A stretch of DNA of 64,000 nucleotides from Geothrix sp. (GTDB lineage Bacteria > Acidobacteriota > Holophagae > Holophagales > Holophagaceae): contig DASXVC010000014.1 of assembly GCA_036504495.1 (NCBI GenBank), positions 2,366-66,365 on the forward strand, written 5' to 3'. Shown here piece by piece: positions 1,406 to 63,867 of the stretch. The position numbers and the translations under genes are program-made. Numbering within the stretch: the first letter of the stretch is position 1; each line of letters starts with the position of its first letter. The notes beneath the pieces were generated by a model, which searched no databases, was not told the DNA's origin, and saw only the letters and a program-made list of their open reading frames with translations.

Positions 1406-1457
1406 CTGGTTGATGGGGGATGGTGATGGGAAAGTGGTGCCATCGCCATTCATCCAG
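1406..1457. repeat. Intergenic inverted-repeat element, GGTGATG family (copy 1)
   Basis: GATGGTGATGGGAAAGTGGTGCCATCGCCATTCATC hairpin; the core is nearly identical to the copy at 3400-3460. Confidence 0.6.
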
Positions 1458-1474
1458 AACAGGAAGGAGTCGGA

Positions 1475-1831
1475 ATGAAAGCCCCCATCTTTCTGCCTCT
1501 TGTTTTGCTGTTCGGGATGGCCTGCGAGCCTGTGACCACCTTCACTCGCCTAAATCAGACTGACTACCCTTCCAAACCAAAAGACTGCGATATCAAGATC
1601 TTCACCCAGGCGCCGGTGGACAAGAAATTCGAGGAAATCGCCATTCTGAACACGGTCACGGCCGAGGGGAACCCGGCGAAGGGTCTCAACGCCATGCTTC
1701 CGAGTATCAAGGCAACCGCCTGTGGGTTGGGCGCTGATGCGGTTCTGATTAAATACGTGGAGCCCGGCGACCCCTCCAGACAGGGTTCGCATGGAAAGAC
1801 ATTTGCTGTCGCTATCAAGTTCCTCAATTAG
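1475..1831 (+). CDS. Hypothetical lipoprotein (YbjQ/heavy-metal-binding-like small alpha/beta domain)
   Basis: AAGGAG RBS; signal peptide with lipobox-like GMAC; FEEIAIL...ACGLGADAVLI pattern; lower GC than flanking genes. Confidence 0.65.
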   Translation: MKAPIFLPLVLLFGMACEPVTTFTRLNQTDYPSKPKDCDIKIFTQAPVDKKFEEIAILNTVTAEGNPAKGLNAMLPSIKATACGLGADAVLIKYVEPGDPSRQGSHGKTFAVAIKFLN

Positions 1832-1868
1832 CGTCTACTTCCCTTGGCCATTTTCCATGGAGCCATCC

Positions 1869-3299
1869 ATGCTTCGCTTCGGATTCAAAACGATCGTGGC
1901 ACTCCTGCTTGCGCCGGTCTTCGCCCCGGTTTTTGCGGAGGGTCCAGCCAAGCCCACGGATGCGGTCCTCGACACTGAGCGTCCCCGTTTCGAGGCGCTG
2001 GCCCGCAGGATCTGGGAGACCCCGGAACTGGCGCTCAACGAGACACGTTCCTCCGCCGCCCTCGCCGATGCCCTGGAGAAGGAGGGTTTCCAGGTGAAGC
2101 GCGGTGTGGGCGACCTGCCCACGGCCTTCATCGCCACCGCCGGCAGCGGCGAGCCGGTCATCGCGGTGCTGGCCGAATACGACGCGCTCCCGGCGCTGTC
2201 CCAGGCGGCGGCCGAGTCGAAGAAGCATGTGCTCGCCGACGGGACGCCGGGCCAGGGCTGCGCCCACAACCTGCTGGGCACGGCCTCCGTGGCCGGGGCC
2301 ATCGCAGCGAACCGCGTCCGCATCCAACAGAAGCTCCCGGGGACGATCCAGGTTTTCGGGACGCCCGGCGAGGAGGTCTTCATCGGGAAGGTCTTCATGG
2401 TGCGCGATGGCGTCTTCGCCAAGACGGACGCGGTGCTCACCTGGCACCCGGACGATCAGAACCGCGTGGTGAACCGCACCCGGCTGGCCGCCGCCGCCGT
2501 CGATGTGGAATTCCTGGGGAAGTCGGCCCATGCCTCTGCCTCGCCCTGGCTCGGCCGGAGTTCGCTCGACGCGCTCGTGCTGTTCGACCACGCGATGGCG
2601 CTCATGCGTGAGCACCTGAGGCCCACGGCCCGCATCCACCGCGTCGTGAAGGATGGCGGCGCCCAGGCCAACATCATCCCGGACTACACCCGGGGCCAGT
2701 ACTGGGTCCGCGACGCGTCCATCGAGGGCGTGAAGAGCATGCTCGACCGGCTCCGCAAGGCCGCCGATGGTGCCGCCACCGCCACGGAGACCAAGGCGAA
2801 GGTGACGGCCCTCTTCGAGGCGCGGGATCCAGTTCCCAACGACGCGCTGGGCAAGGTGATGCAGCGGGAGCTGGAACGCATTGGCGCCCCGGCCTTCGAT
2901 GACGCGGACCTGACCTTCGCGAAGGCCATGCAGCGGGAACTGGCCTTCGAGCCCGCCGGCCTTTCCACCACCGTGATGCCCTACGCCCCCCGCACCGGCG
3001 GAACGGCCTCGTCCGACATCGGCGAGGTGAGCGCCGTGGTGCCCCTGGCCGAGCTGGGCGTGGTGACGCGCCCCCTCGGAACCGCCGCCCACCACTGGGC
3101 CCAGACCTCCTGCGCCGCCCACCCCCTGGGCATGAAGGGCATGCTGGTGGCCGCCAAGGTGCTGGCCGCCTCCGTGGTGGACCTGCTCCAGGACCCGGCC
3201 GCCGTGAAGGCGGTCAAAGAAGAATTCGCGAAGACCATGAAGGGCAAGTCCTACGTTTCGCCCCTCACCCCCGACGCCAAGCCACACGTGTTCCAGTAG
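1869..3299 (+). CDS. M20 family amidohydrolase (AbgB/p-aminobenzoyl-glutamate hydrolase-like) with signal peptide
   Basis: IWETPELALNE, LAEYDALP, GCAHNLLG, GTPGEE, WHP, GKSAHA, SSDIGEVS motifs; GGAG before ATG 1869. Confidence 0.88.
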   Translation: MLRFGFKTIVALLLAPVFAPVFAEGPAKPTDAVLDTERPRFEALARRIWETPELALNETRSSAALADALEKEGFQVKRGVGDLPTAFIATAGSGEPVIAVLAEYDALPALSQAAAESKKHVLADGTPGQGCAHNLLGTASVAGAIAANRVRIQQKLPGTIQVFGTPGEEVFIGKVFMVRDGVFAKTDAVLTWHPDDQNRVVNRTRLAAAAVDVEFLGKSAHASASPWLGRSSLDALVLFDHAMALMREHLRPTARIHRVVKDGGAQANIIPDYTRGQYWVRDASIEGVKSMLDRLRKAADGAATATETKAKVTALFEARDPVPNDALGKVMQRELERIGAPAFDDADLTFAKAMQRELAFEPAGLSTTVMPYAPRTGGTASSDIGEVSAVVPLAELGVVTRPLGTAAHHWAQTSCAAHPLGMKGMLVAAKVLAASVVDLLQDPAAVKAVKEEFAKTMKGKSYVSPLTPDAKPHVFQ

Positions 3300-3399
3300 G
3301 AAACCTTCAAGGTTTTCGAAGAACTCACCACCAGATATCTGTATGTCTCGCGTATCAGCGCAGCTGATACCGAGAGGGCACCAAAAAAGACAAATCAAG

Positions 3400-3460
3400 C
3401 CGGTGATGGACAGTGATGGGAAAGTGGTTGCCATCACCGTTTATCACTGTTCATCACCGG
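3400..3460. repeat. Intergenic inverted-repeat element, GGTGATG family (copy 2), 10-bp tandem units in the arms
   Basis: CCGGTGATGGACAGTGATGGGAAAGTGGTTGCCATCACCGTTTATCACTGTTCATCACCGG. Confidence 0.7.
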
Positions 3461-3510
3461 TTAAAGGTAGTTAGGCGTCAATCCGAACACCGCACCACCT
3501 AGAGGGTCCC

Positions 3511-3900
3511 GTGAACTTGCCAAGGAGTGTTGGGGCGGTTCTTATCGGTTGGATTACAGTGGTCGGTCTTTCGCTCTCCACTGATTATTTGCTCCAGCAA
3601 ACCAGGCTCTTTCCAGCCTGGGGCCAGCCGGTCTGGAGCTTTTGGCCCAATCTCCTGGCCCTTTCCTATCGATGTGTCTTTACGGTGATCGGTTGTTACA
3701 TCGCAGGAAGGCTTGCGGACCGTAATCCCATGTTCCACGCCATTCTTCTCGGCATTATCAGTTTCATTCTCAGTCTTCTTGGGGCTATGACAGCCATTCA
3801 AAACCATTTTGGGCCTGCGTGGTACCCCATCGCACTTGCCCTCGCCACTTTGCCTTGCGCGTGGCTAGGCGGCCTCCTTTCTAAATCACGCAGCGCCTAA
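3511..3900 (+). CDS. Hypothetical 4-TM membrane protein (integron cassette-like gene 1)
   Basis: Four hydrophobic segments, GPAWYPIAL motif, lower GC; preceded by GTTAGGC (3470) and stop codon inside GCCTAAC. Confidence 0.75.
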   Translation: MNLPRSVGAVLIGWITVVGLSLSTDYLLQQTRLFPAWGQPVWSFWPNLLALSYRCVFTVIGCYIAGRLADRNPMFHAILLGIISFILSLLGAMTAIQNHFGPAWYPIALALATLPCAWLGGLLSKSRSA

Positions 3901-4018
3901 CGCTCCCCTCAACTCGAACCCCGCCTTCATTGCCTCTCGCTCTCTCTCAGCATTCCGCTATCTCGGCTCCGCTCAGCGCCTCGGTGCGGGCTGGTCCGGG
4001 GAGCTTCATTCGCCAGGC
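3895..4018 (+). mobile_element. attC-like integron recombination site (degenerate R' core)
   Basis: Starts RYYYAAC (GCCTAAC), imperfect internal inverted repeat, ends GCCAGGC (decayed GTTAGGC); 124 bp; left half repeated at 4519. Confidence 0.75.
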
Positions 4019-4056
4019 CGATCTGGAAGCAGGTTCCCTTTTTCGAAGAGGTCCCC

Positions 4057-4524
4057 ATGCTCGACAACATTCTTCCTCGGCACATAGACAACACCTTTCG
4101 CGGCCAGAAACCGGCGCTGTGGTTCTTTGGGGCCATGGTGTTCATGAAGACCACCCAGAGCCTGGCGGTCCTCTTTGGCGGCCCCTCGGTGATAAGTTCC
4201 GCCGATGGTATCCCCCTCGACACATACGTCCCTGCTGCCGCACAGACAGTCGTTTCCTTATGGGCGCTTCTAGGGCTCACTCGGTTCTGGATCTGTCTGC
4301 TCTGCGTGCTTGTCCTGGTTCGTTATCGATCCATGGTTCCCTTCATGTTCGCGCTGTTGCTACTGCACGACCTTGGTAGAAGCCTCGTTCTTCATTTCCT
4401 GCCCATCATCAGAACCGGTACACCGCCAGGGCCCCTGGTCAACCAGGCAATCCTCGTCATGACCATGGTTGGACTGGTCCTGTCGCTATGGACCAAACGC
4501 AATCCACCCTTACAATCGGCCTAG
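4057..4524 (+). CDS. Hypothetical membrane protein (integron cassette-like gene 2)
   Basis: GAGG RBS, ADGIPLDTY motif, four hydrophobic segments; flanked by GCCAGGCCGAT and ATCGGCCTAGC. Confidence 0.75.
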   Translation: MLDNILPRHIDNTFRGQKPALWFFGAMVFMKTTQSLAVLFGGPSVISSADGIPLDTYVPAAAQTVVSLWALLGLTRFWICLLCVLVLVRYRSMVPFMFALLLLHDLGRSLVLHFLPIIRTGTPPGPLVNQAILVMTMVGLVLSLWTKRNPPLQSA

Positions 4525-4585
4525 CCTGCGCTCAACTCAGGCCCCGCCTGCATTGCCTTTCATGGCTCTCTCCACTTTCCGCCTT
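4519..4585 (+). mobile_element. Truncated attC-like site (left half only)
   Basis: GCCTAGCCTGCGCTCAACTCAGGCCCCGCCTGCATTGCCTTTC resembles GCCTAACGCTCCCCTCAACTCGAACCCCGCCTTCATTGCCTCTC at 3895. Confidence 0.65.
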
Positions 4586-4600
4586 TTCGTGATCGATCCC

Positions 4601-5029
4601 ATGCCGATGACCGACCTCCAGGAACGCATCACCACCAGCTTCAAGGCCCAGGGCCTGATGGCCACTCTTGGAGCCACGATGGTCCTGGTGTCGGAGGGCG
4701 AGGTGCACATCGCGCTGCCCTTCTCGGAGCGGCTGTCGCAGCAGCATGGCTATGTCCACGCGGGCGCCATCACCAGCATTCTCGACAGCGCCTGCGGGTA
4801 CGCGGCGCTGACGAAAGCGGCGCCGGGCTGTGAGGTGGTCACCGCCGAGTTCAAGATCAACCTGCTGCGGCCCGCCATCGGCGACCGCTTCCTGGCCATC
4901 GGACGGGTCCAGAACGCGGGCCGGTCCCTCACGGTCTGCACGGGCGAGGTCCAGGCCTTTTCAGGCAGCGGGTCCGCCCCCAAGGTGGTCGCGCTCATGC
5001 AGGCCACCATCGCCACCCTCCGCCCGTGA
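4601..5029 (+). CDS. PaaI family thioesterase (hotdog fold)
   Basis: QQHGYVHAGAITSILDSACGYAA and EFKINLLRPA motifs. Confidence 0.9.
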   Translation: MPMTDLQERITTSFKAQGLMATLGATMVLVSEGEVHIALPFSERLSQQHGYVHAGAITSILDSACGYAALTKAAPGCEVVTAEFKINLLRPAIGDRFLAIGRVQNAGRSLTVCTGEVQAFSGSGSAPKVVALMQATIATLRP

Positions 5030-5060
5030 TGGCGCGGCCTCCGGTCCCCTCAGGTTTCCC

Positions 5061-5291
5061 ATGCCCCTCGACCATCAGCGCCTGACGGATGCCCAGAAAC
5101 AGACCTGCCCGCTCTGCGGTGGGCCGAACGGGTGTGTACCTTCCGCCTGTGGCCGCACGGACATGCCCTGCTGGTGCACGGCCGTCGCCTTCAACCCGGC
5201 TTCGCTGGCCCTGGTTCCAGAGGAACTCCGCAACGTGGTCTGCCTGTGCCGCCGCTGCGCCCTAGCGCCCCCGGCCGAGGGCCGAGGCTGA
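5061..5291 (+). CDS. Cysteine-rich CWC family protein
   Basis: CPLCGGPNGC...CWC...CLCRRC pattern. Confidence 0.8.
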   Translation: MPLDHQRLTDAQKQTCPLCGGPNGCVPSACGRTDMPCWCTAVAFNPASLALVPEELRNVVCLCRRCALAPPAEGRG

Positions 5292-5312
5292 GGCGGATAC
5301 AAAAAACAAAGA

Positions 5313-5386
5313 TCACCACCAAGACACCAAGAAAAGCGAAAAGAAATGCTTTTGCAGTTCTTGGTGCCTTGGTGTCTTGGTGGTGA
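5313..5386. repeat. Inverted-repeat element, CACCAAGR 8-mer family (copy 1)
   Basis: TCACCACCAAGACACCAAG...CTTGGTGCCTTGGTGTCTTGGTGGTGA between convergent genes. Confidence 0.85.
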
Positions 5387-5423
5387 ATCAGTTTCTTGCT
5401 TCGAGATTGAAGGTCCGCTGGAA

Positions 5424-6572
5424 TCAGAACCCGACCGTGTAGGCCCCATCCCGCATGAGCGGAACGGTGGCTCCTCCGGCCATTTGAAGATCCACGCTCA
5501 CCACCTTCACGTCGGGCTGGGTTTCGGGGACGTAGACGCGGTCGATGTGGATGACGGCTTCGGGGCCGCTGAAGTCCTTGGGGCCGACCTGGCCGCCGAA
5601 GTGGTCGCTGCGGCCGAAGGCGAGGTGGAGGCCCAGCTTCTCGTCCAGGAGGATCTCGCCGATGGGTTTCACGCCGAAGGCTGAGAGCACGCCCAGGCCC
5701 AGCTCGGCCAGGTTGCCGTAGGCAGGTTCTCCGGCCAGCAGGGCGGCCTCCTCGCGGGACTTGGGGCCTTCGCTGACGACCTCCAGCGCCTTGTTGCCCT
5801 CGATGCGGTAGCGCACCACTTCGGCGCCGAACTGCACGGGCATGATGCCCGCCGTGCGGCTGGGATCGCCCGGCAGCTCACCCTCGTAGGGCACGATGTA
5901 GGCTTCGCCTGAGGGCAGGTTGCCCGCCACGCCGGGCGCGGGGAGCAGGCCGCCGGAGGCGTGGCCCGTGCGGTGGCGCAGGTCCACGTGCAGCTCACAG
6001 GCACCCGAAGGCGTATCGAAGCGGAAGGCCGCGCCCTCGGCCCGGTCCAGCAGGTCCTTCAGGAGCTCCACGCGGCGGTTCACTTCGGTGTAGTCCAGGC
6101 GCAGGGCGGGGATCATGTCCTCGCGGAAGCCCGGCATGGTGGCGGCGCGGATGGGGTGCGTCTTCGCGGCCAGCTTGAGGGGCGCGGTGGCCGAGAACTT
6201 CGTGAGCGCGATGAGGATGGGGTGGCTGGCGTAGAGGTCCGCAAAGCTCACGGAGGCCGCGGGATCCAGCGAATCCGTGGCAGGCATGGGGCCGCCCGCG
6301 TGGAGCCAGGCGCGCTCCGGCAGGTCGCCGTTGTTGGTGTGGACGTTGGGATACACCACCAGATGCGTCTCCAGGCCCAGCCCGGCGCGGTGGGCGTTCA
6401 GCTCCGCGGCCCAGGCGGCCGCGATGTCGCGGCGGGCGGCCCAGTTGGCGTCGTCGGGCACCTTCGCGTCCGGCAGGTCCACCAGGATGGCCAGGGCCGT
6501 TTCGCCAGCCCGGGGCTGGAACACCCGCTGCACCAGGGCCACCAGTTCCGATCCCGTCAGTTGTTCGCTCAT
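5424..6572 (-). CDS. M29/aminopeptidase T-like metallopeptidase
   Basis: GNLPSGEAYIVP, NLAELGLG, DEKLGLHLAFG, IHID motifs; GGAGG before ATG 6572. Confidence 0.75.
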   Translation of the reverse strand: MSEQLTGSELVALVQRVFQPRAGETALAILVDLPDAKVPDDANWAARRDIAAAWAAELNAHRAGLGLETHLVVYPNVHTNNGDLPERAWLHAGGPMPATDSLDPAASVSFADLYASHPILIALTKFSATAPLKLAAKTHPIRAATMPGFREDMIPALRLDYTEVNRRVELLKDLLDRAEGAAFRFDTPSGACELHVDLRHRTGHASGGLLPAPGVAGNLPSGEAYIVPYEGELPGDPSRTAGIMPVQFGAEVVRYRIEGNKALEVVSEGPKSREEAALLAGEPAYGNLAELGLGVLSAFGVKPIGEILLDEKLGLHLAFGRSDHFGGQVGPKDFSGPEAVIHIDRVYVPETQPDVKVVSVDLQMAGGATVPLMRDGAYTVGF

Positions 6573-6620
6573 GCGGTCCTCCGCTGGGAGGATGCCCTGC
6601 CTCACGGGGGCCTGTCGAGC

Positions 6621-8941: not shown

Positions 8942-9053
8942 GCCTGCGGTGCTCCGGCGGTCTGGCAGGCCCCGGATTCCGGGTCCCTGAGGCCGATGCC
9001 TCTGCATCGGCGCGGAGGCTGGCAGACTGGTGTTTTCGATGGGAACGGACTCG

Positions 9054-9776: not shown

Positions 9777-9803
9777 ATGATCCCGGCCCGAGGAAAGAAG
9801 AGG

Positions 9804-9949
9804 CCTCCACGAAGGGCACGAAGGAAAGGCTGGATTGGCACGAAGGTGGGACGAGGCGCCTGAACGAGAGGCCCCGTTTACCCATCCGACTCGAATTCAT
9901 TCGTGGCCTGTCTTGCGCCCGTAGGGCGTATTCGTGTCCTTTGTGGAGG
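9804..9949. repeat. Inverted-repeat element, CACGAAGRR 9-mer family
   Basis: CCTCCACGAAGGGCACGAAGG...ATTCGTGTCCTTTGTGGAGG between convergent genes; same family as 58255-58491. Confidence 0.7.
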
Positions 9950-9984
9950 GCTTTTCCTGGATGAGTCGAGAGGCTCGGCTGCCC

Positions 9985-12900
9985 TCAATGCCAGGTCAGG
10001 TCCCCGTCGCGGGGGCTGCTGCGCAGCTCCACCGCATTGGCCAGGACGCAGAGGGCCGGGCCCTGGTCGAAGCGGTGGGTCAGGCCCGCCGGAAGACCGG
10101 TCTTGCCGGCGACGCCCACCCATCCATCCCGGCCCGAGCGCTTGGCGGCGTAGAGGCAGCGATCGGCCACTCGCACCTGGTCCTCCCAGGACCCCGATTC
10201 CAGGTGGTCTGACTGGAAGGGGAAGAGGGAGAAGCCGATGGAACAGGTGATCTCCACGGGATCCGGCAGCCCCAGATCGAAGGAATGTTCCCGCACGGCC
10301 TGGTGGAGGCGGGCCACCACCGTGGCCGCGCCATCCAGGTCCGCGGTGTGGCCCACGAAGAGGATCTCCTCGCCGCCCCACCGGATGAGGAAGTCCGATT
10401 CACGCGCCTCCCGCTTCAGGATGCCGGCCACCTGCTTCAGGACCAGGTCCCCCGCGGCATGGCTCCAGGTGTCGTTCACGCGCTTGAAGTGGTCCAGGTC
10501 GATCATGGCGAAGACCAGGCAGGCCTCGGCGGGAAGGTCCGCGCCCTGGTGGTCGCGCTGGCCGCGCAGGACCAGGGCCAGGACGGGGGGAAGCTCCTCT
10601 TCGAGGTAGCGCCGGTTGCGGAGGCCCATGAGGGGATCCGTGGTGGAGATGGTGGCCAGGGCGAGGTTGCTCAGTTCCAGCGCCTCGGTGCGCTGGTAGA
10701 CCAGGGTCCTCAGTTCCTCATTCCGCCGCCGCAGCAGGCGGACCCGCCAGCGGAGGTAGACCACTCCTGTGCAGGCGGCGAGGCCGCCCCACACGGGCCA
10801 GATCCACCAGCGCCGCCACCACGGGGAAAGCACCCGGAACCCCACGGAGGCGATGGGCCCCGCGCCACCCTCTTCGAGCACGGCGCGGACATCCAGGCGG
10901 TAGGGTCCCGGGGGCAGGGCGGGGTAGCGGAGGTCCCGGGTCGGGAGATCCACCCAATCCTCGTCAAGACCGGCCAGCCGGGCCTGGAAGCGGTACCGCC
11001 CTTCGTGCTCAAAGGTCAGGGAGGTGAAGTGGGCCGCCAGGGTGCGATCCGCGTAAGGGACCGCGCCCAGGTTCATCAAACCCGCGATGGGCCGGTCCCA
11101 CTGGCGCGAGCCCAGCCGGAAGGAGACGAAAAGGGTTTCCGGGAGGACGGGGGGCCGGTTGCCGGGTACGGGGTGGTGATGGAGGAGGCCCGCGGTGGAT
11201 CCGAACCAGATGCCCCCATCCGGATCCACCCAGGTGGAGAAGGGATTGCAGTCGGTACTGGTGAGGCCGTCCTCGCGCCGGAAGAGCCGGTGGCTGGCGC
11301 CATCTGTGCATTGAACACCACGGGGGCCGCCCACCCACAGGCGGCCGGTGGGATCCACCGCGAGGCTGTACACCGAATCGCTGGCGAGGCCGTTCCGGCG
11401 GGCCCAGTGGTCGATCACCCGGGGCGCAGGCCCCCGCAGATCCACATGGGTGAGGCCCATGGGTTCCCGGTAGGCCACCCAGGCCGTGCCATCGGGAAGG
11501 GGCGCCAGGGCCGCGAGGGGCGCTGGCCGGAGGCCGATCTCCCGTCCCCAGCGTTGCCATTGGCCCTGGTCCAGGCGGGCCAGGCCGGTGCCCGTGGCAG
11601 CCCAGAGGCGGCCCTGGGGGTCTTCGTGCAGGGCCGCGATGGCCTCCAGTGCCGGGGTGCCGGGATTCTCCGTCCGTTGGAACACGGCGCGTCCAGTGGG
11701 GTCCGACAACCGCCACAAACCGTCGTGGGAGGTGCCCACCCACAGGTCGCCGCTCCGGTCGAAGGTCAGGGCCACGGGCACCGCCAGGCCCTTGGCCGGT
11801 GGCAGCGGGATGCGCGTCATGCGGGACCGGTCCGGGCTGATGCGGACGAGGAAGGGCTGTTCCCCGGCGCCCCAGATGGAGCCATCCGGCCCCTCCTTCA
11901 AGGTGTAGAGGACCAGGCCCGCGGCGGGGGGAAAGGCCGTGGGGCCCTTGGCCGCCATGCGCGCGAGGCCGTTGCTGGTGCCGATCCAGAGCACGCCGGA
12001 CCGGTCCCGGAGCAGGCCCCAGACGTTGTCCGCCGGGAGGCCGTCCAGATGCGTGATGTTCTCCCAGGCTCCGGTGCCCTGGAGCCGGTGCAGCCCCAGA
12101 CTGGCCACCCAGAGGTTGCCCGTGCGGTCCACGAGGGCCTGGTTGGCCCAGCCCGAGGGCAGGCCCCGGGTTTCGTCCAGGAGCCGCCAGGTGGCCGGGT
12201 CTGTGAAGTGGAGCAGGCCTTTGGCCGTGGGGACGAACACACCGCCATCGCCGTCCGCGCTGAGGGTCTCCTCGTAGAAGCTCACGCCCAGGGGTGGGAG
12301 GCCCTTGGCGGGCAGGGTGAGGCGGGAGGCCCGGGGCGCCAGCAGACGAAGGTGGCTGGGGGTCCGCACCCAGAGCGTTCCGGAGCGGGTCATCAGCAGG
12401 GCTTTCACGGATTCCGCGGGCACGCCTTCCCGGGTCGTCCAGGTGCGCCACTGGCCTGTGGCGTGGAGGTGGTGGAGGGCCGAGGACCCGCCCACCAGGA
12501 GGCTCCCGCCATCCCAGGCCAGCGAATAGGCGGGGCCGCCCGGCCAGCCCTGGACCGGGGTGAAGGGGCCGCCGGTGCTGCGGAAGAGGCCCGACTCTGC
12601 CGCGACCCAGACCTGGCCCTGGGGGTCCTGGAGGATCTGGTGGATCTGGGCAGAGGCCAGGGGGTCACCGGCCTCCAGGGGCTGTATGCGTCCCTCCCGC
12701 CAACGGCAGAGGCCCGCGCGGGTGCCGATCCAGAGGCTGCCGTCCGGGCAGGGGCTGAAGGCGCGGACCCAGGCGGAAGGCAGACCCTCTGGCAGGCTCC
12801 AGAGGCGGAAGCCCGTTCCATCGAACCGGTAGGCGCCGCCTTCGGTCCCCACCCACAGGAAGCCCGCGGCGTCCTGGGTCAGGGTGGTGAGGCTGGTGTG

Positions 12901-14869: not shown

Positions 14870-14870
14870 G

Positions 14871-17129: not shown

Positions 17130-17264
17130 GGTCCGGCGGCAGGTTGGCGATATGGTTCGCGCCGATCCGCTGGAGCGCAGCCACCGTTTCCTTCGCACGG
17201 TCGCAGGGCGATTCGCGTCATTCGCGGTTCGATCTTTCTGGCTGAGTCTCCCCGATAAGGAGTA

Positions 17265-17842: not shown

Positions 17843-17940
17843 GCGGGAACGAGGAGGTCGGGCACGGAGACACCCCCGGACGGAGAAAGAAGGATCAGCC
17901 ACGGATGAACACGGATGAACACGGATTCACACGGATGAAA
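17843..17940. repeat. Direct repeat copy 2, running into a CACGGATGAA x4 tandem array
   Basis: ATCAGCCACGGATGAACACGGATGAACACGGATTCACACGGATGAA; a further arm ATCAGCCACGGATGAACAC at 18132. Confidence 0.8.
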
Positions 17941-17994: not shown

Positions 17995-18093
17995 TAAGCG
18001 GAGGAGAGCTGAGTCGCTGAGGAAAGCGGAGAAAAGCAAAAAACTACTGTGTTCTTCTCTGCTCTCCTCCGCACTTCCGCTACCCTCCGCTTA
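17995..18093. repeat. Inverted-repeat element, GCGGAG family
   Basis: TAAGCGGAGG...GCGGAGAAAAGC / GCTCTCCTCCGC...CCTCCGCTTA around an AT-rich loop. Confidence 0.65.
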
Positions 18094-18208
18094 CGTACGG
18101 TTTTTTGGTTGGGGCGGCCTCTCCGCATGGAATCAGCCACGGATGAACACAGGTAAAAACAGAGGGCGGGATCGCTCCCACCCTCCGTTCATTGCTAGAA
18201 ATTCGGAA

Positions 18209-18723: not shown

Positions 18724-18751
18724 CTTGGTGGTCTTGGTGTCTTGGTGGTGA
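18724..18751. repeat. Right arm only of a CACCAAGR-family element
   Basis: CTTGGTGGTCTTGGTGTCTTGGTGGTGA; a further arm end TTGGTGGTGATC at 18649. Confidence 0.7.
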
Positions 18752-22332: not shown

Positions 22333-22461
22333 GGGCCGCCCACCGGATTTTTCCAGCAATTAAAAAAGTCCATAAAAATCCTCACTTTGAGGGCCCGCGC
22401 CCCTCTGCGAAGGACCCTTTCGCTGGCGTGACCCCCCCCTCAGAAGCTACCCTGATGGCAA

Positions 22462-22552
22462 GCCGGGCCCCATGCATCGGGGTGCGACGAACCGGGTCAG
22501 ATCGGAAGAAGCAGCCCTAAGTCGCTCCCCCGAGTGCCGTGGTAAGCCCGGC
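22462..22552 (+). ncRNA. ffs: Signal recognition particle RNA (small bacterial 4.5S type)
   Basis: Long hairpin GCCGGGC...GCCCGGC containing GAACCGGGTCAGATCGGAAGAAGCAGCCCTAAG (helix-8 motif with GGAA tetraloop). Confidence 0.9.
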
Positions 22553-22661
22553 CCTTTTGCGCCTTTGGCGAAAAAGGGCCGGACTTACCATCCGTTCGCG
22601 CGGCGCCTGCGGCTTGCGCTCACGGGTCGGTACCGCCGTACGCAAATCTGCTTTTCTTTTC

Positions 22662-42202: not shown

Positions 42203-42292
42203 TCACCACCAAGACACCAAGGCACCAAGAAAAGCAAAAAGAACTTCTTTTGTCATTCTTGGTGTCTTGGTGTCTTGGTGTCTTGGTGGTGA
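42203..42292. repeat. Inverted-repeat element, CACCAAGR 8-mer family
   Basis: TCACCACCAAGACACCAAGGCACCAAG...CTTGGTGTCTTGGTGTCTTGGTGTCTTGGTGGTGA just downstream of rpoD. Confidence 0.85.
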
Positions 42293-45999: not shown

Positions 46000-46989
46000 A
46001 TGACCCAGCTTCTCGACACCATTCTTCTCTTCAGCCTGCCGGCTTCGGGCAAGTCGGAGGTGCGCCGCTACCTGGCCAGCCTCACTCCGGACCAGTGCCG
46101 GAACGACTTCCACATGGGGCCGACCCTCCAGCTGGACGACTACCCCTACGTGCACCTCATGCACCGCATCGACGACGAGCTGAAGGCCAGCGGCCTGGGC
46201 TACGCCTATTACCACGGGCCCAGCCGCCCCTTCCGGGACAACTGGACCTGGGCGGTCCTCATCGAGCTGCTGAACGAGGACTACGCCAATCTCATGGCCA
46301 GCCGCCACCTTGAAGTGGCCAGTGCGGCGCAGCACCTCTTCGACCGTCTGGACGCGGCTCATGCCCGGGTGGGCCTGTCCCAGCCCCTGGGGGAGATTCC
46401 CCACCGCATCCGCGTGCGCATGGCCGAGGCCCTGGAAGTGCCGTGCCGGGCCGAGCTGGACACCCTCAACCGCCAGAACGCCCTGGATAAGGCTGGGCGC
46501 ACCCTGGTGATCGAGGCCGCCCGCGGCGGCGCCCACGGCTCAGCCTTCCCCCTGTGCCCGCCCCACGGTTATGACACGGCCTTCCAGACCCTCTCGCCGG
46601 TCATCCTCGAAAAGGCCTCCGTCCTCTACGTCTGGGTGGACCCCACCGAAAGCCGCCGCAAGAACATCGAGCGGGGCCGGCCCGATGGGCAGGGCAGCAT
46701 CCTGCACCACAGCGTGCCCATGGAAGTCATGCTGGGCCAGTACGGCACGGACGACATGGCCTGGCTCATGGAGCAGAGCGACCGCCACGGCACCATCCGC
46801 GTGGAGCGCACCATCCAGGCCGGCGACCGCTACGAGACGAAGATCTACCACCTCCCCGTGGCCCGCTTCGACAACCGGAACGACCTCACGACCTTCGTCC
46901 GCGAAGACCAGAAGCTCTGGAAATCCGCCGATGTCCAGGCCATCCACAGCGGCCTCAAGGCAGCCTTTGACCAGCTGGCAAAAAGATAA
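46000..46989 (+). CDS. Hypothetical protein with a degenerate N-terminal P-loop
   Basis: ILLFSLPASGKSE then QLDDYPY; strong coding codon bias; function unknown. Confidence 0.75.
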   Translation: MTQLLDTILLFSLPASGKSEVRRYLASLTPDQCRNDFHMGPTLQLDDYPYVHLMHRIDDELKASGLGYAYYHGPSRPFRDNWTWAVLIELLNEDYANLMASRHLEVASAAQHLFDRLDAAHARVGLSQPLGEIPHRIRVRMAEALEVPCRAELDTLNRQNALDKAGRTLVIEAARGGAHGSAFPLCPPHGYDTAFQTLSPVILEKASVLYVWVDPTESRRKNIERGRPDGQGSILHHSVPMEVMLGQYGTDDMAWLMEQSDRHGTIRVERTIQAGDRYETKIYHLPVARFDNRNDLTTFVREDQKLWKSADVQAIHSGLKAAFDQLAKR

Positions 46990-46997
46990 AAAGCTTC

Positions 46998-47066
46998 AAC
47001 CGCAGAGGGCGCAGAGATCGCAGAGGGAATCTGCTTTTCTCTGCGCCCTCTGCGTTCTCTGCGGTT
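46998..47066. repeat. Inverted-repeat element, CGCAGAGRR 9-mer family
   Basis: AACCGCAGAGGGCGCAGAGATCGCAGAG...CTCTGCGCCCTCTGCGTTCTCTGCGGTT between convergent genes. Confidence 0.85.
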
Positions 47067-47076
47067 AAACGTCTTT

Positions 47077-49166: not shown

Positions 49167-50360
49167 GTGAATCCTGGCTACCTGGCCCACCTCAACCGTG
49201 AGATCGAGCTGCTGAAGGAAGCGGGGCTCTACAAGACGGAGCGGGTCATCACCTCGCCCCAGCAGCCCCAGATGCAGGCGAACGGTAAGGACGTGGTGTG
49301 CCTCTGCGCCAACAACTACCTCGGTCTGGCCAACCATCCGGAGATCATCCAGGCCGCCAAGTCGGTGATGGACGACCATGGCTTCGGCATGGCCTCGGTG
49401 CGCTTCATCTGCGGCACCCAGGACATCCACCGGGAGCTGGAGCTGAAACTCGCCGCCTTCCTGGGCTTCGAGGACACCCAGCTCTATTCCTCGTGCTTCG
49501 ATGCCAATGGCGCCATCTTCGAAGGCCTGCTCGGCGAGGAGGACGCGATCATCAGTGACGCGCTGAACCACGCCTCCATCATCGACGGCATCCGCCTCTG
49601 CAAGGCCCAGCGCTTCCGCTACGCCAACTCCGACATGGCCGACCTGGAAGCCCAGCTGAAGGCCGCGGATGCCGCGGGCGCCCGGTTCAAGCTGGTGGTC
49701 ACGGATGGCGTCTTCAGCATGGACGGCTACATCGCGAAGCTTGCTGAGATCTGCGATCTGGCTGAAAAGCACGGCGCCATGGTCATGGTGGATGACAGCC
49801 ACGCCGTGGGTTTCATGGGGGTGAATGGCCGTGGCACGCATGAGCACTGTGGCGTCATGGGGCGTGTGGACTTCATGACGGGGACCTTCGGCAAGGCCCT
49901 GGGCGGCGCCTCCGGCGGCTACATCGCCGGCAAGCAGGTGGCCATCGACTGGCTGCGCCAGAAGGCCCGCCCCTACCTGTTCTCGAATTCCGTGGCCCCG
50001 GCCATCGTGGCCGCCACCCTGAAGGTGCTCGACCTCCTGAAAAACAGCCAGGGCCTCATCAAGCAGGTGCATGAGAACGCCCGCTATTTTCGCGCCGGCA
50101 TGGAGAAGGCTGGCTTCAAGCTGCTGCCCGGCGAGCACCCCATCGTGCCCGTGATGCTGTACGAGGCGCCGCTGGCCCAGGAATTCGCCAAGCGCCTGCT
50201 GGACGAGGGCGTCTACGTCATCGGGTTCTTCTTCCCCGTGGTGCCCAAGGGCCAGGCGCGCATCCGCACCCAGATGAGCGCTGCGCATACCCGCGAGGAC
50301 CTGGACCACGCCATCAAGGCCTTCACCAAGGTGGGCCGCGAGCTGGGTGTGATCAGCTAG
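49167..50360 (+). CDS. kbl: Glycine C-acetyltransferase (2-amino-3-ketobutyrate CoA ligase)
   Basis: [52 protein letters not shown]; AGGAGA RBS before GTG. Confidence 0.96.
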
Positions 50361-50549
50361 GGTCTGTTTTCAAAGTGGGGTGTGGCCGCGCAAGGGGCGC
50401 CGCCCCTTGCCCTCCGGGACGTCGCCCAGCCGCACCCCTGGCTACGTTGACGGCCTCGAACGATGTCCCGCATCGCCCTTCGGCCGCCGTCTTGCCATGA
50501 GCGCGGCTGGTCGCCGTCGCGGCTCGCATCCACTTTGAAAACAGACCCT
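50359..50549. mobile_element. Putative MITE, 191 bp, 20-bp perfect terminal inverted repeats
   Basis: AGGGTCTGTTTTCAAAGTGG ... CCACTTTGAAAACAGACCCT; structured interior; overlaps the kbl stop codon (CTAG). Confidence 0.75.
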
Positions 50550-50558
50550 GGCCCTTTC

Positions 50559-53159: not shown

Positions 53160-53174
53160 GTAACGCCTGGAAGA

Positions 53175-54298: not shown

Positions 54299-54319
54299 CT
54301 TCTTGCAGAGAGGCACCTG

Positions 54320-54370: not shown

Positions 54371-54393
54371 TTGCCACAAAGCTCATTGGAACC

Positions 54394-55017: not shown

Positions 55018-55072
55018 GGCATGAACCTTAGCAGAGGCGCGGGACGGTAGGATGGAAGAAAGAGGAGGGCAC

Positions 55073-56641: not shown

Positions 56642-56713
56642 ACCTGTTTGTCGCCTTTTCCCGAAGCCGCGCAAGGCGCTAGTCTGGAGGCTGGATCCCG
56701 ATGAGGAGTGGCC

Positions 56714-57211
56714 ATGGCCAGCGAGTGTTCGTTTGATGTCGTCTGCAAGGTGGACCTGGACGAGGTGAAGAACGCCGTGTCCCAGGCCATGAAGGAGATC
56801 GGCCAGCGCTACGACTTCAAGGGCTCGGTCTCCAAGATCGAGCTGAAGGATGACAAGGTGCTGGTGCTCAACAGCGACGACGAGGTGAAGCTCAAGGCCG
56901 TCATCGACGTGCTGCAGACCAAGCTGCACAAGCGCGGCGTGAGCATCCGCAGCATGGAATACGGGAAGCTCGAGCCGGCCTCCAAGGGCAGTGTTCGCCA
57001 GGAAGTCACCATCCAGCAGGGCATCCCGGTGGACAAGGCCAAGGGCCTCATCAAGGCGATCAAGGACTCGAAGATCAAGGTCCAGGCCAGCATCCAGGGC
57101 GACCAGCTCCGCGTCAGCGGCAAGAGCCGCGACGATCTGCAGGAAGTCATCGCCCTCTTCAAGAAGGACGATCAGGGATTGGACCTCCAGTTCACGAACT
57201 ACCGAGGATGA
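56714..57211 (+). CDS. yajQ: YajQ family nucleotide-binding protein
   Basis: [40 protein letters not shown]. Confidence 0.95.
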
Positions 57212-57215
57212 CCCT

Positions 57216-58211: not shown

Positions 58212-58225
58212 TTAAGGGTTTCCGA

Positions 58226-58530
58226 TTATCGGCGAGCCTCAGCCTCAAAAAGATCTCCACGAAGAACACGAAGGCACCCTGCGGGCGCATGAAGGGCGCG
58301 AATGGGCCTCGACCCACCGTGGACATCCCTTCGCGAGCGTCAGCCGTGGCGGCTTCGGAAGTCGCCCAGAGCCGCCGCCCGCGAAGCCGGTTGCGCCATG
58401 CGCGACCGGGGCCCGAGGCCCGGATGTCCTAAGCCGAAACCTGGTAACTGCCTTTGTGGCCTTTGCTTTCTTCTTCGTGTTCTTCGTGGAGGCTTTTGAA
58501 TCCTTTGATCAGGCTGAGGCTTGCCGATAA
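58226..58530. repeat. Nested inverted-repeat element (three layers)
   Basis: Outer IR 19/20 bp (58226-58245 / 58511-58530); middle CACGAAG-family arms (58255 / 58491); inner GGACATCC...GGATGTCC multibranch (58321-58429). Confidence 0.8.
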
Positions 58531-58549
58531 CGAGGTAAGGGTTATCCGA

Positions 58550-59905
58550 TCACCTCTCCAGGGAGGCCAGCAGCTCCTGGAAGCGCGGGTGCGAGCGGAT
58601 GGAGTCCAGATCGCCGTCGTGGATGAACCAGTCCTTCTGGGATAGTCCCCCGGCCACGGCACGCTCCAGGCAATCCAGGCTCTCCTCGGGATCACCAGCC
58701 AGGGCATGGATGCACCCCAGGTTGTAGAGCAGCATGGGGTCGTCGGGGTCCATGCTGCGGGCCATCCGGGCCCAGGCCAGGCCCTTGTCGCGCTCCCCCA
58801 GGGCCACGAGGGCGTTGGCTCCCAGGTAGCGGGCGCGCGCATCATCGGGGGCGTGCTCCAGCCGTTCCTCCACCAGGGCCAGGCCGGCCCGGCGGGCCCG
58901 CTCCGCCTCATCCTCGAGCCCCAGGCTGTGATAGACCTGGGCCACCAGCAGGATGGCCTGGAAGTCCTCGGGGCGGAGTGCCGCCGCCCATTCGAAGTAC
59001 TCGATGGCCCGTTCCGGCTTGCCTGCCGCGAAGCAATGGCGGGCATAGAAATAGGCGGCGGAGTAGAGGTTGGGATTCAGGCGGAGGGCGGTTTCGAAGG
59101 CCGCCTCCGCCTCGTCGGCCAGGCCGGCGGCGGAAAGGGCGGCGCCCCGGGACGCATGGGCCTCGGCCAGTTCCGGGTCCAGTTCCAGGGCCTTGCGGCT
59201 GCAGGACTCCGCCAATTCCCTTTGGGGCTCGGTTCGGTCGATGTAGATGTAGCTGTAGGCTGCGCAGTTCGCCAGGCCCGCCCAGGCCGAGGGGAAATTC
59301 GGATCACGGTCCAGGGCGCGCCGGTACATCTCCGCCGCCTGGCTCATGCCATGGCGGTTGAACCGGAAATACTGCTGCCGGCCCCTCAGGTAGCACTCAT
59401 AGGCTTCGAGGTCCACCGGGTATCTGGGCCGTACGGACGCGGGCACATGCAGTGCCAAAGCCACGGAGCGGGTGATGTCATCGAGGGTGGCGAAGAGATC
59501 CTTCCGGTCGAAGGTATAGACCCTGGACCAGGCCACCCGGCCTGATTTCACATCCACCAGTTCCGCTTTCAGGATCAGGAGGCGTTCATCTTTCCTGAGT
59601 GAGCCCGTGAGGATGGCGGTCGCATGCAGGCGGCGCCCCGCCGCCAACGGGGAGAGGGCCGATCCTCCATACCAGAAGGAGGTGGTCCTGGAGACCACCT
59701 GGAGGTCCTCCAGGTGGTTGAGGGACTGGAGCACCTCATCGGCGATCCCCTCGCTGAGGTGCGAATCGCCGCCATCCGGCCGTTGATCCAGAAAAGGGAG
59801 GACAGCCACCACGGCCCGCCCTTTCCGCGCCTTGGGATGAACGGGGCCCCTTTTCGCAACTCCGGTCCGGGAGGATCGAGGGAACTTCCCCAACTGCAGG
59901 GTCAT
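58550..59905 (-). CDS. TolB-like/TPR repeat protein (adenylate-cyclase-associated type, no catalytic domain seen)
   Basis: VAVLPF...SEGIADE...VVSRTTSF, EAYECYLRG, TPR repeats, YNLGC..A, DGDLDSIRSHPRF. Confidence 0.85.
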   Translation of the reverse strand: MTLQLGKFPRSSRTGVAKRGPVHPKARKGRAVVAVLPFLDQRPDGGDSHLSEGIADEVLQSLNHLEDLQVVSRTTSFWYGGSALSPLAAGRRLHATAILTGSLRKDERLLILKAELVDVKSGRVAWSRVYTFDRKDLFATLDDITRSVALALHVPASVRPRYPVDLEAYECYLRGRQQYFRFNRHGMSQAAEMYRRALDRDPNFPSAWAGLANCAAYSYIYIDRTEPQRELAESCSRKALELDPELAEAHASRGAALSAAGLADEAEAAFETALRLNPNLYSAAYFYARHCFAAGKPERAIEYFEWAAALRPEDFQAILLVAQVYHSLGLEDEAERARRAGLALVEERLEHAPDDARARYLGANALVALGERDKGLAWARMARSMDPDDPMLLYNLGCIHALAGDPEESLDCLERAVAGGLSQKDWFIHDGDLDSIRSHPRFQELLASLER

Positions 59906-60027
59906 GGTCCACCTCATCGGCCATCCCGGAAACAGGACCATGGGGTGCATAGATATACCGACCCCGATCCGGGCGTGGTATCAGCATGGGATGGCTGGAC
60001 CTTCGCGCAAGGGGCCGCGGCGCCCGC

Positions 60028-61587
60028 CTAGCTTTCGACCTCTCCCAGCCTCAGATCGAACGGGATCCCCGCCCGTTTGCAGGCCGCGATGAAGCTCTCC
60101 TTGTCGGGGCACTTGAGGTAGGCCTCCATGGGCTCCACTTTCTTGTCCTTCATGTGCTCGACCAGCGCATCGTTCATGAGCCGCTGGCCGTAGCTGCGGC
60201 CGGTCTGCATGGCGCTGGGAATCTGGAAGTTCTTGCCTTCGCGGATGAGGTTGGCGATGGCAGGGCTGATGAAGAGCGTCTCCAGGGCGGCGATGCGGCC
60301 GCCGCCGATCTTCTTCAGCAGGGTCTGGCTCACCACGCACTTCAGGGCGTCCGCCAGCATCACGCGGATCTGCTGCTGCCGGTCGGCGGGGAACTGGTCC
60401 ACGATGCGGTCGATGGTGCCGATGGCACTGCTGGTGTGGAGGGTGCCGAAGACCAGGTGGCCGGTGATGGCCGTCTCCAGGGCGATGGCGATGGTCTCCA
60501 GGTCGCGCATCTCACCCACCATCACGATGTCGGGATCCTCGCGCAGGGCGGCCCGGAGGCCGTTCTTGAAGCTGTCCGTGTGGGTGCCCACCTCGCGCTG
60601 GTTCACGAGGCAGCCCTTGCGCGGATGCACGAACTCGATGGGATCCTCGATGGTGAGGATGTGGTCCTGCCGCTTCTGGTTGGCCAGGTCGATGATCGCC
60701 GCCAGGGTGGTGGATTTGCCGCTGCCCGTGGGGCCGGTCACCAGCACCAGGCCCTTGGAGAGGTCGCAGAGGCGCCGGATGGGATCGGGCAGGCCCAGCT
60801 TGTCTGGATCGGGGATCTGGTTGGGGATGACGCGGCAGACCAGGCCCGGCCCCACCCGATCCATGAAGTAGTTCACGCGCAGGCGGCAGCCACCCGACTC
60901 GTAGGCGTACGCGAAATCCGCATCGTGGCGTTCCTGGAAGTGGTGCCAGGCGGTTGGAGTGGCCACCGCTTCCATCATCTCCAGCAAGGTGGCTGGTTCC
61001 AGACGGCCGAACCCCTCCAGCTCCTTCATGTCGCCGTGAATGCGCGCCAGGGGCGGTTCCAGGGAGGTGCAGTGCAGGTCTGAGCCTTGCTGGGCGAGCA
61101 GGGCGGTGAAGAGGCGGTCGGCCAGGGGGTGGGTGTGGCTGCGGTCCGGCCGCGGAAGCTGTGGCGCACTGGCCACGCCCACGGGAGCGGCCTTGGGCGT
61201 GGGGGCAGGCGCGGTCGCGGCGATGGCGACTGGCGTGGGAACGGGTGCTGGCGCGGGGTTGGGCTGCGCCTGGGAACGGGCTGGGCCCTTGTGCTCCGCA
61301 ATGATGAGCGGGACGTCGAGGTAGCGGCTCAGGCGGATCAGGAAGGTCTGGCCGCTGAGGTCGTGTTCGAATTCGGCCTTGCCATCCTTCTGCCAGGTGG
61401 CTTTCAGCGCTCCGGGGACCACTTCCCCCGCCAGGACATCCACCATCACCGTGGGCAGGGGGTTCGGCAGCAGGTCCACGGCCTCGCCGTTCTTGAGTTC
61501 CAGGCGGGGCTTCTTATCCGCCTCCAGGCGGAGCAGGGTGCCGCCCCTGGCGATGACGTGGGAAAGCAGCCGGTCCAGCTGGGCCAT
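60028..61587 (-). CDS. pilT: Type IV pilus retraction ATPase with N-terminal extension
   Basis: [52 protein letters not shown]. Confidence 0.92.
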
Positions 61588-61692
61588 GAATGTCTCCTGC
61601 AGCCTTCAAAGGATGCCACGGGTCACAGCCTTCGGGGTTCGGACATGATGGCCCGGCCGCTAGACTGGGAAGTGACCTTCTCGGGAGCAAGC

Positions 61693-62850
61693 ATGAACAT
61701 CCATGAATACCAAGCCAAGGAGCTGCTGAGGCAGTACAAGGTGGCCACGCCCGACGGCAAGGTCGCCCAGGACGCTGAGGAAGCCCGCATGATCACCAAG
61801 GAATTCGGCGGGGCCAGCGTCGTCAAGGCGCAGATCCACGCCGGCGGCCGCGGCAAGGGCGGTGGCGTGAAGTTCGCGACGGATCCCGACAAGGCCGCCG
61901 AGCTGTTCAAGGCCATGATCGGCATGCAGCTCGTCACCAAGCAGACCGGCGCCGAGGGGCGCAAGGTCCGCACGGTGTTCCTCTCCAAGCCCGTGGACAT
62001 CGAACGGGAACTCTACTTGAGCTTCCTGGTGGACCGCGTCACCAGCCGGGTCACCATCCTGGCTTCCACCGAGGGTGGTGTGGAGATCGAGGAAGTCGCC
62101 GAGAAGACCCCCGAGAAGATCGTCCGGGTGGCCGTGGATCCGGCCCTGGGCCTCAGCGGCTTCCAGGCGCGCCAGGTGGCCTTCGCCCTCGGGCTCGAAG
62201 GCAACGCCTTCAAGCAGGGCGTCGTGTTCCTCCAGAACCTCTACCGGCTCTTCGTGGAAAAGGATTGCTCCATGGTGGAGATCAATCCGCTGGTCATCAC
62301 CAAGCAGGGCGACGTGACCGCCCTGGACGCCAAGATCGGCTTCGATGACAACGGCCTGGTCCGCCACCCCGACGTGCTGGCCTACCGCGACCTCAACGAG
62401 GAAGCGGAGGAGGAAGTGGAAGCCAGCAAGTACAATCTCAACTTCATCAAGCTGGATGGCAGCATCGGCTGCATGGTGAACGGCGCCGGCCTGGCCATGG
62501 CCACCATGGACATCATCAAGTACTGCGGCAGCTCCCCGGCCAACTTCCTGGACGTGGGCGGCAGCGCCACCGAGGATGCGGTGAAGAACGCCTTCCGCAT
62601 CATCCTGCAGGACAAGTCCGTGAAGGCCGTGCTGGTGAACATCTTCGGCGGCATCATGCGCTGCGACATCGTGGCTTCCGGCATCGTGAACGCGGCGAAG
62701 GAGATCGGCATCAAGGTCCCCGTGGTCGTGCGCCTTGAGGGCACCAACGTCGAAGAAGGCAAGAAGATCCTCGCGGAGAGTGGCCTGAACCTCATCGTTG
62801 GAGCCGACCTGAAGGACGCCGCCGAGAAGGTGGTCGCTTCCATCAAGTAG
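61693..62850 (+). CDS. sucC: Succinyl-CoA synthetase beta subunit
   Basis: [49 protein letters not shown]. Confidence 0.97.
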
Positions 62851-62894
62851 TCCCACCACGGAACCCGATCGATTCCATTCTTGCGAGGTATGAC

Positions 62895-63767
62895 ATGGCA
62901 GTTCTCGTGGGCAACCACACCAAACTCATCGTTCAGGGCATCACGGGCCGCGAAGGCCTCTTCCACGCCAAGGGCTGCCGCGACTACGGCACGAACGTGG
63001 TCGGCGGCGTGACCCCCGGCAAGGGCGGCACCGAGATCGAAGGCTTCCCGGTCTTCAACACCGTCCAGGATGCCGTGGCCAAGACCGGCGCCAACGCCAC
63101 CATGATCTTCGTCCCCCCCGTGGCCGCCGCGGATGCCATCCTCGAAGCCCTCGACGCGGGCATCGAGCTGGTCGTCTGCATCACCGAGGGCATCCCCGTC
63201 CTCGACATGGTCAAGGTCAAGCGGGTGCTCCCCAATTATCCCAAGAGCCGCCTCATCGGCCCCAACTGCCCCGGCATCATCAGCCCCGGCCTGGCCAAGA
63301 TCGGCATCATGCCCGGCCGCATCCACAAGCAGGGGCACGTGGGCGTGGTCAGCCGCTCCGGCACCCTCACCTATGAGGCCGTGGGCCAGCTCACGGCCCT
63401 GGGCATCGGCCAGAGCACCTGCATCGGCATTGGCGGTGATCCCGTGAGCGGCACCAGCCACATCGATGCGCTGGAGATGTTCAACAATGATCCCGACACC
63501 CACGCCGTCATCATGATCGGCGAGATCGGCGGCAGCGCCGAGGAAGATGCCGCCGCCTGGGTCAAGGCCAACATGAAGAAGCCCGTGGTGGCCTTCATCG
63601 CCGGCCAGACGGCCCCTCCGGGCCGCCGCATGGGCCATGCGGGCGCCATCATCTCTGGAGGCAAGGGCACCGCCGCCGAGAAGATGAAGGCTCTCACCGC
63701 CGCTGGCATCACCGTCGTGCAGAGCCCCGCCGACATGGGCAAGGCCCTGGCCGAGCGCCTGAAGTAG
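62895..63767 (+). CDS. sucD: Succinyl-CoA synthetase alpha subunit
   Basis: [32 protein letters not shown]. Confidence 0.97.
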
Positions 63768-63782
63768 TCACAACGAAAAGCT

Positions 63783-63867
63783 TCACCACCAAGACACCAA
63801 GGCACCAAGGCACCAAGGCACCAAGAACTGCTATTTTCTTTTCTTGGTGTCTTGGTGTCTTGGTGGT
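63783..63867. repeat. Inverted-repeat element, CACCAAGR 8-mer family
   Basis: TCAC(CACCAAGR)x5...CTTGGTGTCTTGGTGTCTTGGTGGT downstream of sucD. Confidence 0.85.

Follow-up and report, generated by a model that had tools for sequence, protein, structure and literature searches.

REPIN-RAYT systems consist of extragenic elements of about 100 bp with two inverted arms and a variable spacer, present in many copies (10.1101/2021.07.10.451892). They persist for a long time at their sites, a partner enzyme gene is tied to the same repeats, and repeat abundance is linked to the partner (10.1101/2021.07.10.451892). The closest published anatomy to the elements studied here is that of the Coxiella 23S intervening sequence (IVS), a small gene within terminal inverted repeats with tandem heptamers, variable in copy number and spread horizontally (PMC4990558). 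Intergenic tandem short units were also described in Xanthomonas and Nostoc (PMC4692102) and in Beggiatoaceae (PMC4679880), and the Xanthomonas heptamer arrays often formed inverted pairs near stop codons (PMC4692102). Furthermore, in GTAG/CGTC repetitive extragenic palindromes (REPs) and TIRtrons, inverted-repeat families flank a mobilising gene and are dispersed downstream of genes (PMC3733652). In this study, a stretch of 64,000 nucleotides from Geothrix sp. (contig DASXVC010000014.1, positions 2,366 to 66,365; contig C14 in our labels, hereafter the window) was analysed together with its genome (3.0 Mb, 67% GC, 83% complete). The window contained intergenic elements with inverted arms built of short tandem units, and these were confirmed to be gene-less forms of a cassette whose arms wrap a GxxExxY gene.

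The genome held nine GxxExxY loci (10 matches, one gene being frameshifted) and one four-helix-bundle gene. Inverted arms enclosed the gene at eight of the nine loci, with a different unit at each; the frameshifted gene was armless and had an IS1595 end just upstream. An initial annotation of the window had suggested a link of such arms to GxxExxY and four-helix-bundle genes, and the link was real; the four-helix-bundle gene (PF05635) was also flanked by arms, of 7-bp units. This gene (L011:1501-1803) carried its arms in reverse order and lay upstream of a gene that we take, from its translation, to be dnaJ-like; about 5-6 empty elements were found in the genome for each of two 7-bp families. 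All of the genome's cassettes were co-directional with their neighbour genes, and their GC content was 54-60%.

The same arrangement was found well beyond this genome. In the comparison set of 62 genus genomes, 53 carried 1-10 GxxExxY matches (range 0-10 per genome), and arms were present at 82 of the 89 distinct genes read, out of about 235 matches, against 2/100 shifted controls; 14 had the arms in reverse order. Outside the genus, 80 genes were fetched and 74 could be scored (5 truncated and 1 unparsed were left out), from 14 named phyla including one archaeon; arms stood at 63 of them and at 3/141 controls. For metagenome genes of the second protein clade, the counts were 48 of 61 scorable genes (80 fetched, 16 truncated and 3 unparsed left out) and 1/92 controls. 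In addition, four of six viral genes had arms. Divergent viral GxxExxY genes at L354, L357 and L358, on contigs of 50-80 kb, were bounded by AT-rich inverted arms of tandem units unlike the bacterial core. The cassette was shown to spread horizontally, and host phylum barely followed the protein tree of clade 1 (36 changes versus 40 after shuffling).

The partner protein was PF13366 (PDDEXK_3) in all eight proteins scanned, a family tabulated as of unknown function with multiple horizontal transfers (PMC3424549). The structure model had a predicted local distance difference test (pLDDT) score of 91 and predicted a PD-(D/E)XK, restriction-endonuclease-like fold. Naming the closest enzyme by fold was given up, as Cas4, type II restriction enzymes, a DUF820-like protein and Holliday junction resolvases tied at Z 7-8, and a sequence search for solved relatives returned none (best E 0.13). 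The predicted catalytic residues E48, D88, E98 and K100 were invariant across 79 aligned proteins. The median ratios of nonsynonymous to synonymous substitution (dN/dS) were 0.075 and 0.10, with dS saturated in 13/28 and 3/15 pairs, respectively, values indicative of purifying selection.

The arm families were labelled by their units. F1 was the unit at 5313, 18724, 42203 and 63783 (period 8), and F1' its variant differing by one base. F2 was found at 9804 and 58255 (period 9), F3 at 46998 (period 9), F4 at 17893 and 18132 (period 10), F5 in the right arm at 17211 (period 9), F6 at 17995, and F7 at 1406 and 3400 (period 10). Tandem dimers in the genome were compared with two order-4 Markov simulations: F1 gave 89 (0 and 0 in the simulations), F2 63 (0 and 0), F1' 36 (1 and 3), F3 18 (0 and 0), F4 13 (0 and 0) and F5 9 (0 and 0), and the looser F7 and F6 patterns were merely 2-3 times background. 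A de novo search yielded 101 merged pairs, the majority with this architecture and some of them chance genic matches. The census with 25 chosen units gave about 172 elements, a few of them nested and double-counted or mis-paired, and 55 lone arms. Left and right arms agreed in family in 105 of 130 elements, compared with 19.8 after shuffling. Moreover, eight of ten window regions folded at z scores of -5.6 to -10.1 against dinucleotide shuffles, the exceptions being those at 1406 and 17106. The repeat elements were accordingly confirmed as real and hairpin-forming.

All repeat units listed in the initial annotation were recovered in place. Of its entries, 17893 and 18132 turned out to be lone left arms, 18724 a lone right arm and 17106 a chimera. 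It had also placed the elements between genes, mostly after a stop codon. Genome-wide, 353 of 419 arms were intergenic by the calls of a simple purpose-made gene caller, and the median distance from stop codon to element was 29.5 nt. In all, 94 elements lay between co-directional, 56 between convergent and 3 between divergent genes (n = 153); the corresponding counts for all gaps of at least 60 nt were 741, 164 and 309 (n = 1214). A spacing of roughly one helical turn had been supposed for the units. The arms consisted of tandem direct units of 8, 9 or 10 bp, with 8 in the commonest family, F1, and helical-turn spacing was rejected as a general rule.

The abundance of the empty families was related to the resident gene at one site, the gap between genes presumed from their translations to be argS and pyrG. 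It was read in 50 of the 62 genomes: nine had an F1 cassette, seven an F1' cassette, of which one was internally deleted, 30 were empty with a 14- or 37-nt spacer, and four held remnants or another family. In all 15 intact copies at this site, the start codon of the gene overlapped the argS stop and the reading frame passed through the left arm; translation of the left arm as a general rule was rejected, being false at several other sites. The F1 and F1' proteins formed two supported clades that were interspersed on the host tree built from sigma-70 (48 genomes), with 12 changes of state. The median number of F1 dimers genome-wide was 63, 7 and 0.5 in F1-cassette, F1'-cassette and empty genomes, respectively, and that of F1' dimers was 5, 31 and 0. 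The F1 share of dimers was 0.66-0.99 with an F1 cassette and 0-0.57 with an F1' cassette, ranges that were disjoint, and rank tests treating kin as independent gave p ≤ 1e-4. The genome-wide abundance of an empty family thus followed the resident subtype. Match gaps also pointed to about 60 extra bases within the pyrG-like gene of two relatives (L056 and contig C148 of G056).

Comparison of proteins and arms indicated that every subtype of the protein is accompanied by a unit of its own. In the genus protein tree, the clades followed the arm units, yet unit was confounded with site. Across phyla, units of clade 1 ended in AG or CG in 61 of 63 cases and in AT in none, and units of clade 2 ended in AT in 45 of 48. 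Within clade 1, where just 2 of 66 branches were well supported, unit position 5 needed 13 changes versus 23 shuffled (0/300 shuffles as low). The diverged specificity families proposed in the initial annotation were borne out in this respect, as the arm families tracked protein subtypes in the genus tree, in the unit ends across phyla and in the argS-pyrG subtypes. A residue-to-base recognition code was also considered and rejected: residues 28, 29, 33, 50 and 126 covaried with unit position 5, but only one independent pair was available on supported branches.

Several sites of window elements varied among relatives. In 27 of 30 genomes, the gap at 46998 held an element. Seven families were represented (the label of one degenerate case was set manually); these needed 14 changes on the flank tree, and well-supported sister genomes differed in family. 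The site at 42203, 3' of a sigma-70 gene, had an arm element in 12 of 30 genomes, of three kinds (F1, F1' and F3/F6-like). Short GC hairpins with T tracts stood there in most other genomes, as judged by eye, and several of these had a different downstream gene. In L139, L146 and L155, a short insert preceded a duplicate of the final sigma-70 codons, as an integrating element would leave. The 9804 element was present in 3 of 16 resolved genomes, with a flank-only remnant in one, and close strains had 13 other letters in place of 9777-9988 (runs X2, X4 and X5; two studies). At 63782-63870, an orthologous F1 element was found in G001 and an ordinary hairpin in G061 and G010. At species-level distances, no clear co-conversion gradient was seen at 46998 or argS-pyrG, the first 30 nt on one side being slightly raised. 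The mobile system suggested in the initial annotation held in that sites vary between relatives; a good many of the plain elements are old and do not look newly moved, and a single route of mobility was not supported.

One route was seen directly. [quoted passage not shown] In a contig about 97% identical, and in a second study, 58212-58537 was absent with three other letters in its place, and 58221-58535 was found in 0 of 20 resolved syntenic relatives. The 170-nt spacer of the element was shared by 12 or more dispersed copies with identities of about 70-92%, and this subfamily was found in 9 of 62 genomes. The 8-bp target duplication matched at 6 or more of 8 bases in 13 of 16 MITE copies versus 1.9 shuffled, and IS1595 elements usually generate 8-bp duplications (PMC8101967). 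In relatives G053 and G060, autonomous elements of 1,111 bp, which encode an IS1595 transposase (PF12762) of 320 aa, were bounded by the same ends; the genome's own IS1595 transposase was rejected as the partner, since its ends differ.

An IS1595-type flank was found at 10 of the 172 elements (about 6%) and at none of 42 F1 elements. The wrapper carried several arm families and inserted into the arms of others; at L407, L414, L421 and L425, the MITE was often inserted in arms or loops of another family, giving nested elements. Target duplications were seen solely in the IS1595-wrapped subfamily and were rejected as a general feature: direct repeats were not in excess in any of five flank windows of 158 elements, and the plain arm elements had no target duplication or IS1595-type ends, the ends of other transposase families lying outside the search. 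Other IS1595 arrangements were also noted. At L426 (the end of contig C31 of the genome) and on contig C19 of the genome, an IS1595 element with its own ends directly adjoined the frameshifted GxxExxY gene, the one without arms, on its upstream side and interrupted a small gene pair of nucleotidyltransferase type (the pair named by eye). The same IS1595-type ends enclosed small PIN-like genes of toxin-antitoxin type (by eye), without arms, at L442:483-1524 and L450:271-1185.

A mechanism may be proposed on this basis. Each GxxExxY subtype would recognise the arm unit particular to it and nick or cut DNA, rather than RNA, at the paired arms, after which host repair might occasionally copy, swap or delete the element without a target duplication. 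Each enzyme would likely spread or maintain its own repeat family, and the probable reason for the persistence of elements at gene 3' ends would be that stable hairpins are tolerated there or can replace a terminator. A minority, about 6% recognisable, travels as IS1595-type MITE cargo. We incline, with slightly better than even confidence, to the view that this is a REPIN-RAYT-like system run by a PD-(D/E)XK enzyme, with gene-less cassette copies and an own arm unit for each subtype. The wider proposal is held more tentatively and seems somewhat less than an even chance: it would be a cross-phylum class of selfish or domesticated DNA, in which 120-residue PD-(D/E)XK nucleases of many subtypes each read their own tandem-unit arm and propagate or replace their own empty hairpins by cut-and-repair without transposase or target duplication, with about nine families side by side in one genome competing for the same 3' sites.

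Several results weighed against an enzyme-driven system. The whole unit tracked the protein tree weakly inside clade 1 (42 changes versus 49 shuffled, minimum 41), and the covariation of residues and bases was phylogenetically non-independent. As gene and arms travel together, linkage alone could give the match of clade and unit. The abundance link could draw on only three independent pairs with branch support, which agreed in direction (3 of 3, p 0.25). Two genomes empty at argS-pyrG still held 41 and 49 F1 dimers, and the Geothrix genome itself had 17 F1' elements with no F1' gene found, in an assembly 83% complete. Furthermore, 10 of 12 F1 sites of G001 (about 88% flank identity) were shared with this genome, so that new insertions were rare, and the sole precise new insertion seen came from the IS1595-type wrapper. 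Finally, T content downstream of the elements (6.1/12) exceeded A content upstream (5.1/12; p 0.005), a hint of selection at the RNA level.

This hint bears on the reading in which the elements are RNA elements kept by the host, that is bidirectional terminators, 3' stabilisers or RNase III sites, the gene being a passenger of the loop and the families spreading through recombination of look-alike arms. The scarcity of elements between divergent genes is in line with it, as hairpins at gene 3' ends are a trait of intrinsic terminators, and so are the mixture of arm elements and short GC hairpins with T tracts at the sigma-70 3' site and the uniform co-directional orientation of the cassettes. 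The Coxiella IVS, which has an S23p gene within a tandem-heptamer stem and which RNase III cleaves (PMC4990558), is a further parallel. A role as terminator or stabiliser is possible, because the elements stand where relatives have ordinary terminator-like hairpins, and it perhaps explains where they survive. T runs of 6 or more followed just 6 of 94 co-directional elements, and the transcribed strand of 58 co-directional elements showed no G-U excess (74 G-U versus 91 A-C pairs, p 0.21), as expected if the constraint is strand-symmetric. Such a role leaves the link of F1 and F1' abundance to the resident subtype unexplained, together with the invariant predicted catalytic residues, and as the whole explanation it appears unlikely.

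Dispersal by ordinary transposases, for which the elements would serve as cargo of MITEs or as targets while the GxxExxY gene is linked only in cis, holds for the IS1595-wrapped minority, for which the ends, the duplication, the autonomous relatives and the varied cargo of one wrapper all speak. As an account of all elements it is distinctly unlikely, given the low share of IS1595-type flanks, their lack at F1 elements and the lack of direct-repeat excess. The least probable reading was homing, in which the nuclease would act at a small number of conserved sites, cutting alleles that lack the cassette or hold another family, and the cassette would be copied in by repair, the empty elements being decayed cassettes or decoy targets. 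The same host sites did carry cassettes repeatedly across scattered lineages, with the subtype swapped between sister genomes, and besides the one with an internal deletion others were reduced to single arms. Against homing, co-conversion gradients were not clear at either site studied, and the empty copies, some 172 spread over numerous unrelated sites, exceed what decayed homing alleles could account for. The REPIN-RAYT-like system run by a PD-(D/E)XK enzyme was retained as the preferred reading.

The features of the window are collected in Table 1, with gene names taken from Pfam. Directly 5' of the 3400 element, 3320-3385 was a decayed F1-like remnant with a small embedded hairpin, of a type also nested in several F1 spacers elsewhere. 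An Rfam scan of the window matched only the bacterial small signal recognition particle (SRP) RNA (RF00169) at 22461-22556, followed by a 24-bp hairpin at 22540-22590, and gave no match to the arm elements. At 50356-50552, 3' of an aminotransferase gene, 23-nt inverted repeats, 96% complementary, stood 151 nt apart; related DNA was abundant in the sequencing runs compared, and this is probably another small mobile element.

Table 1. Arm elements and associated features of the window (fold z, folding z score).
Feature	Coordinates	Strand	Remark
Degenerate F7 element, 10-bp units	1406..1460		3' of S41 peptidase gene; fold z -3.7
F7 element	3401..3459		Fold z -8.1; also in a close strain (run X2)
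F1 element	5313..5386		Convergent-gene gap; fold z -9.5
F2 element	9804..9949		Convergent-gene gap; same element in 2 relatives
Chimera, degenerate F4-like left arm and F5 right arm (17211-17226)	17106..17229		Fold z -1.1
Lone right end of IS1595-type MITE	17240..17263		Adjoins F5 arm
Lone F4 left arm, 4 units	17893..17940		Unit match
F6 element	17995..18093		Flanked by two F4 left arms; fold z -6.9
Lone degenerate F4 left arm	18132..18150		Unit match
Lone F1 right arm	18724..18747		3' of ribonucleotide reductase gene
F1 element	42203..42292		3' of sigma-70 gene; fold z -10.1
F3 element	46988..47076		Convergent-gene gap
Left 8-bp target duplication of MITE	58213..58220	+	Single copy in close strains
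IS1595-type MITE, 315 bp, 24-bp terminal inverted repeats	58221..58535		F2 element as cargo
F2 element with 170-nt spacer, MITE cargo	58255..58491		Spacer shared by 12 or more copies
Right 8-bp target duplication of MITE	58536..58543	+	Sequence match
F1 element	63782..63870		3' of succinyl-CoA ligase genes

These results provide candidate substrates for PDDEXK_3/GxxExxY proteins, whose function is listed as unknown. The F1 and F1' subtypes also form a ready specificity pair, since they occupy one site, their arm units are one base apart, and the empty families rise and fall with them. If the proposed mechanism is true, it would account for a large group of intergenic repeats that lack annotation across many phyla, and would offer sequence- or structure-specific nucleases of very small size whose targets vary naturally. 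It would also extend the REPIN-RAYT idea to another enzyme class and tie it to rRNA intervening sequences.

The elements are real and widespread, and apparently undescribed in print: no published description of the GxxExxY-arm pairing was found in the literature searched, most subscription papers and supplements being outside the search. Compared with the Coxiella 23S IVS, which the PF05635 gene with its 7-bp-unit arms resembles, the elements lie between protein genes, are mostly gene-less and have a nuclease-family protein as the main partner. IS1595 derivatives with passengers (PMC8101967) match 58221-58535 in its ends, shared with autonomous IS1595 elements of the genus, and in its 8-bp duplication; they explain the wrapper alone, and about 94% of arm elements have no recognisable ends of this kind. 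The heptamer arrays differ in their 7-bp units and in that no partner gene is described for them in the available texts; the word "nuclease" is absent from the main texts of PMC4692102 and PMC4679880. The GTAG/CGTC REPs and TIRtrons have a tyrosine transposase as partner, and the available part of PMC3733652 describes no tandem-unit arms. As for REPIN-RAYT systems, as far as the available sources describe them, RAYT is an HUH tyrosine transposase, REPs are small palindromes, and RAYT genes are single-copy and vertically inherited. Here, in contrast, the partner is a PD-(D/E)XK protein, the arms are tandem direct units, and the partner gene occurs in 0-10 copies, crosses phyla and reaches an archaeon. 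The arm elements would work like REPIN-RAYT systems but fall outside them in enzyme, arm structure and inheritance.

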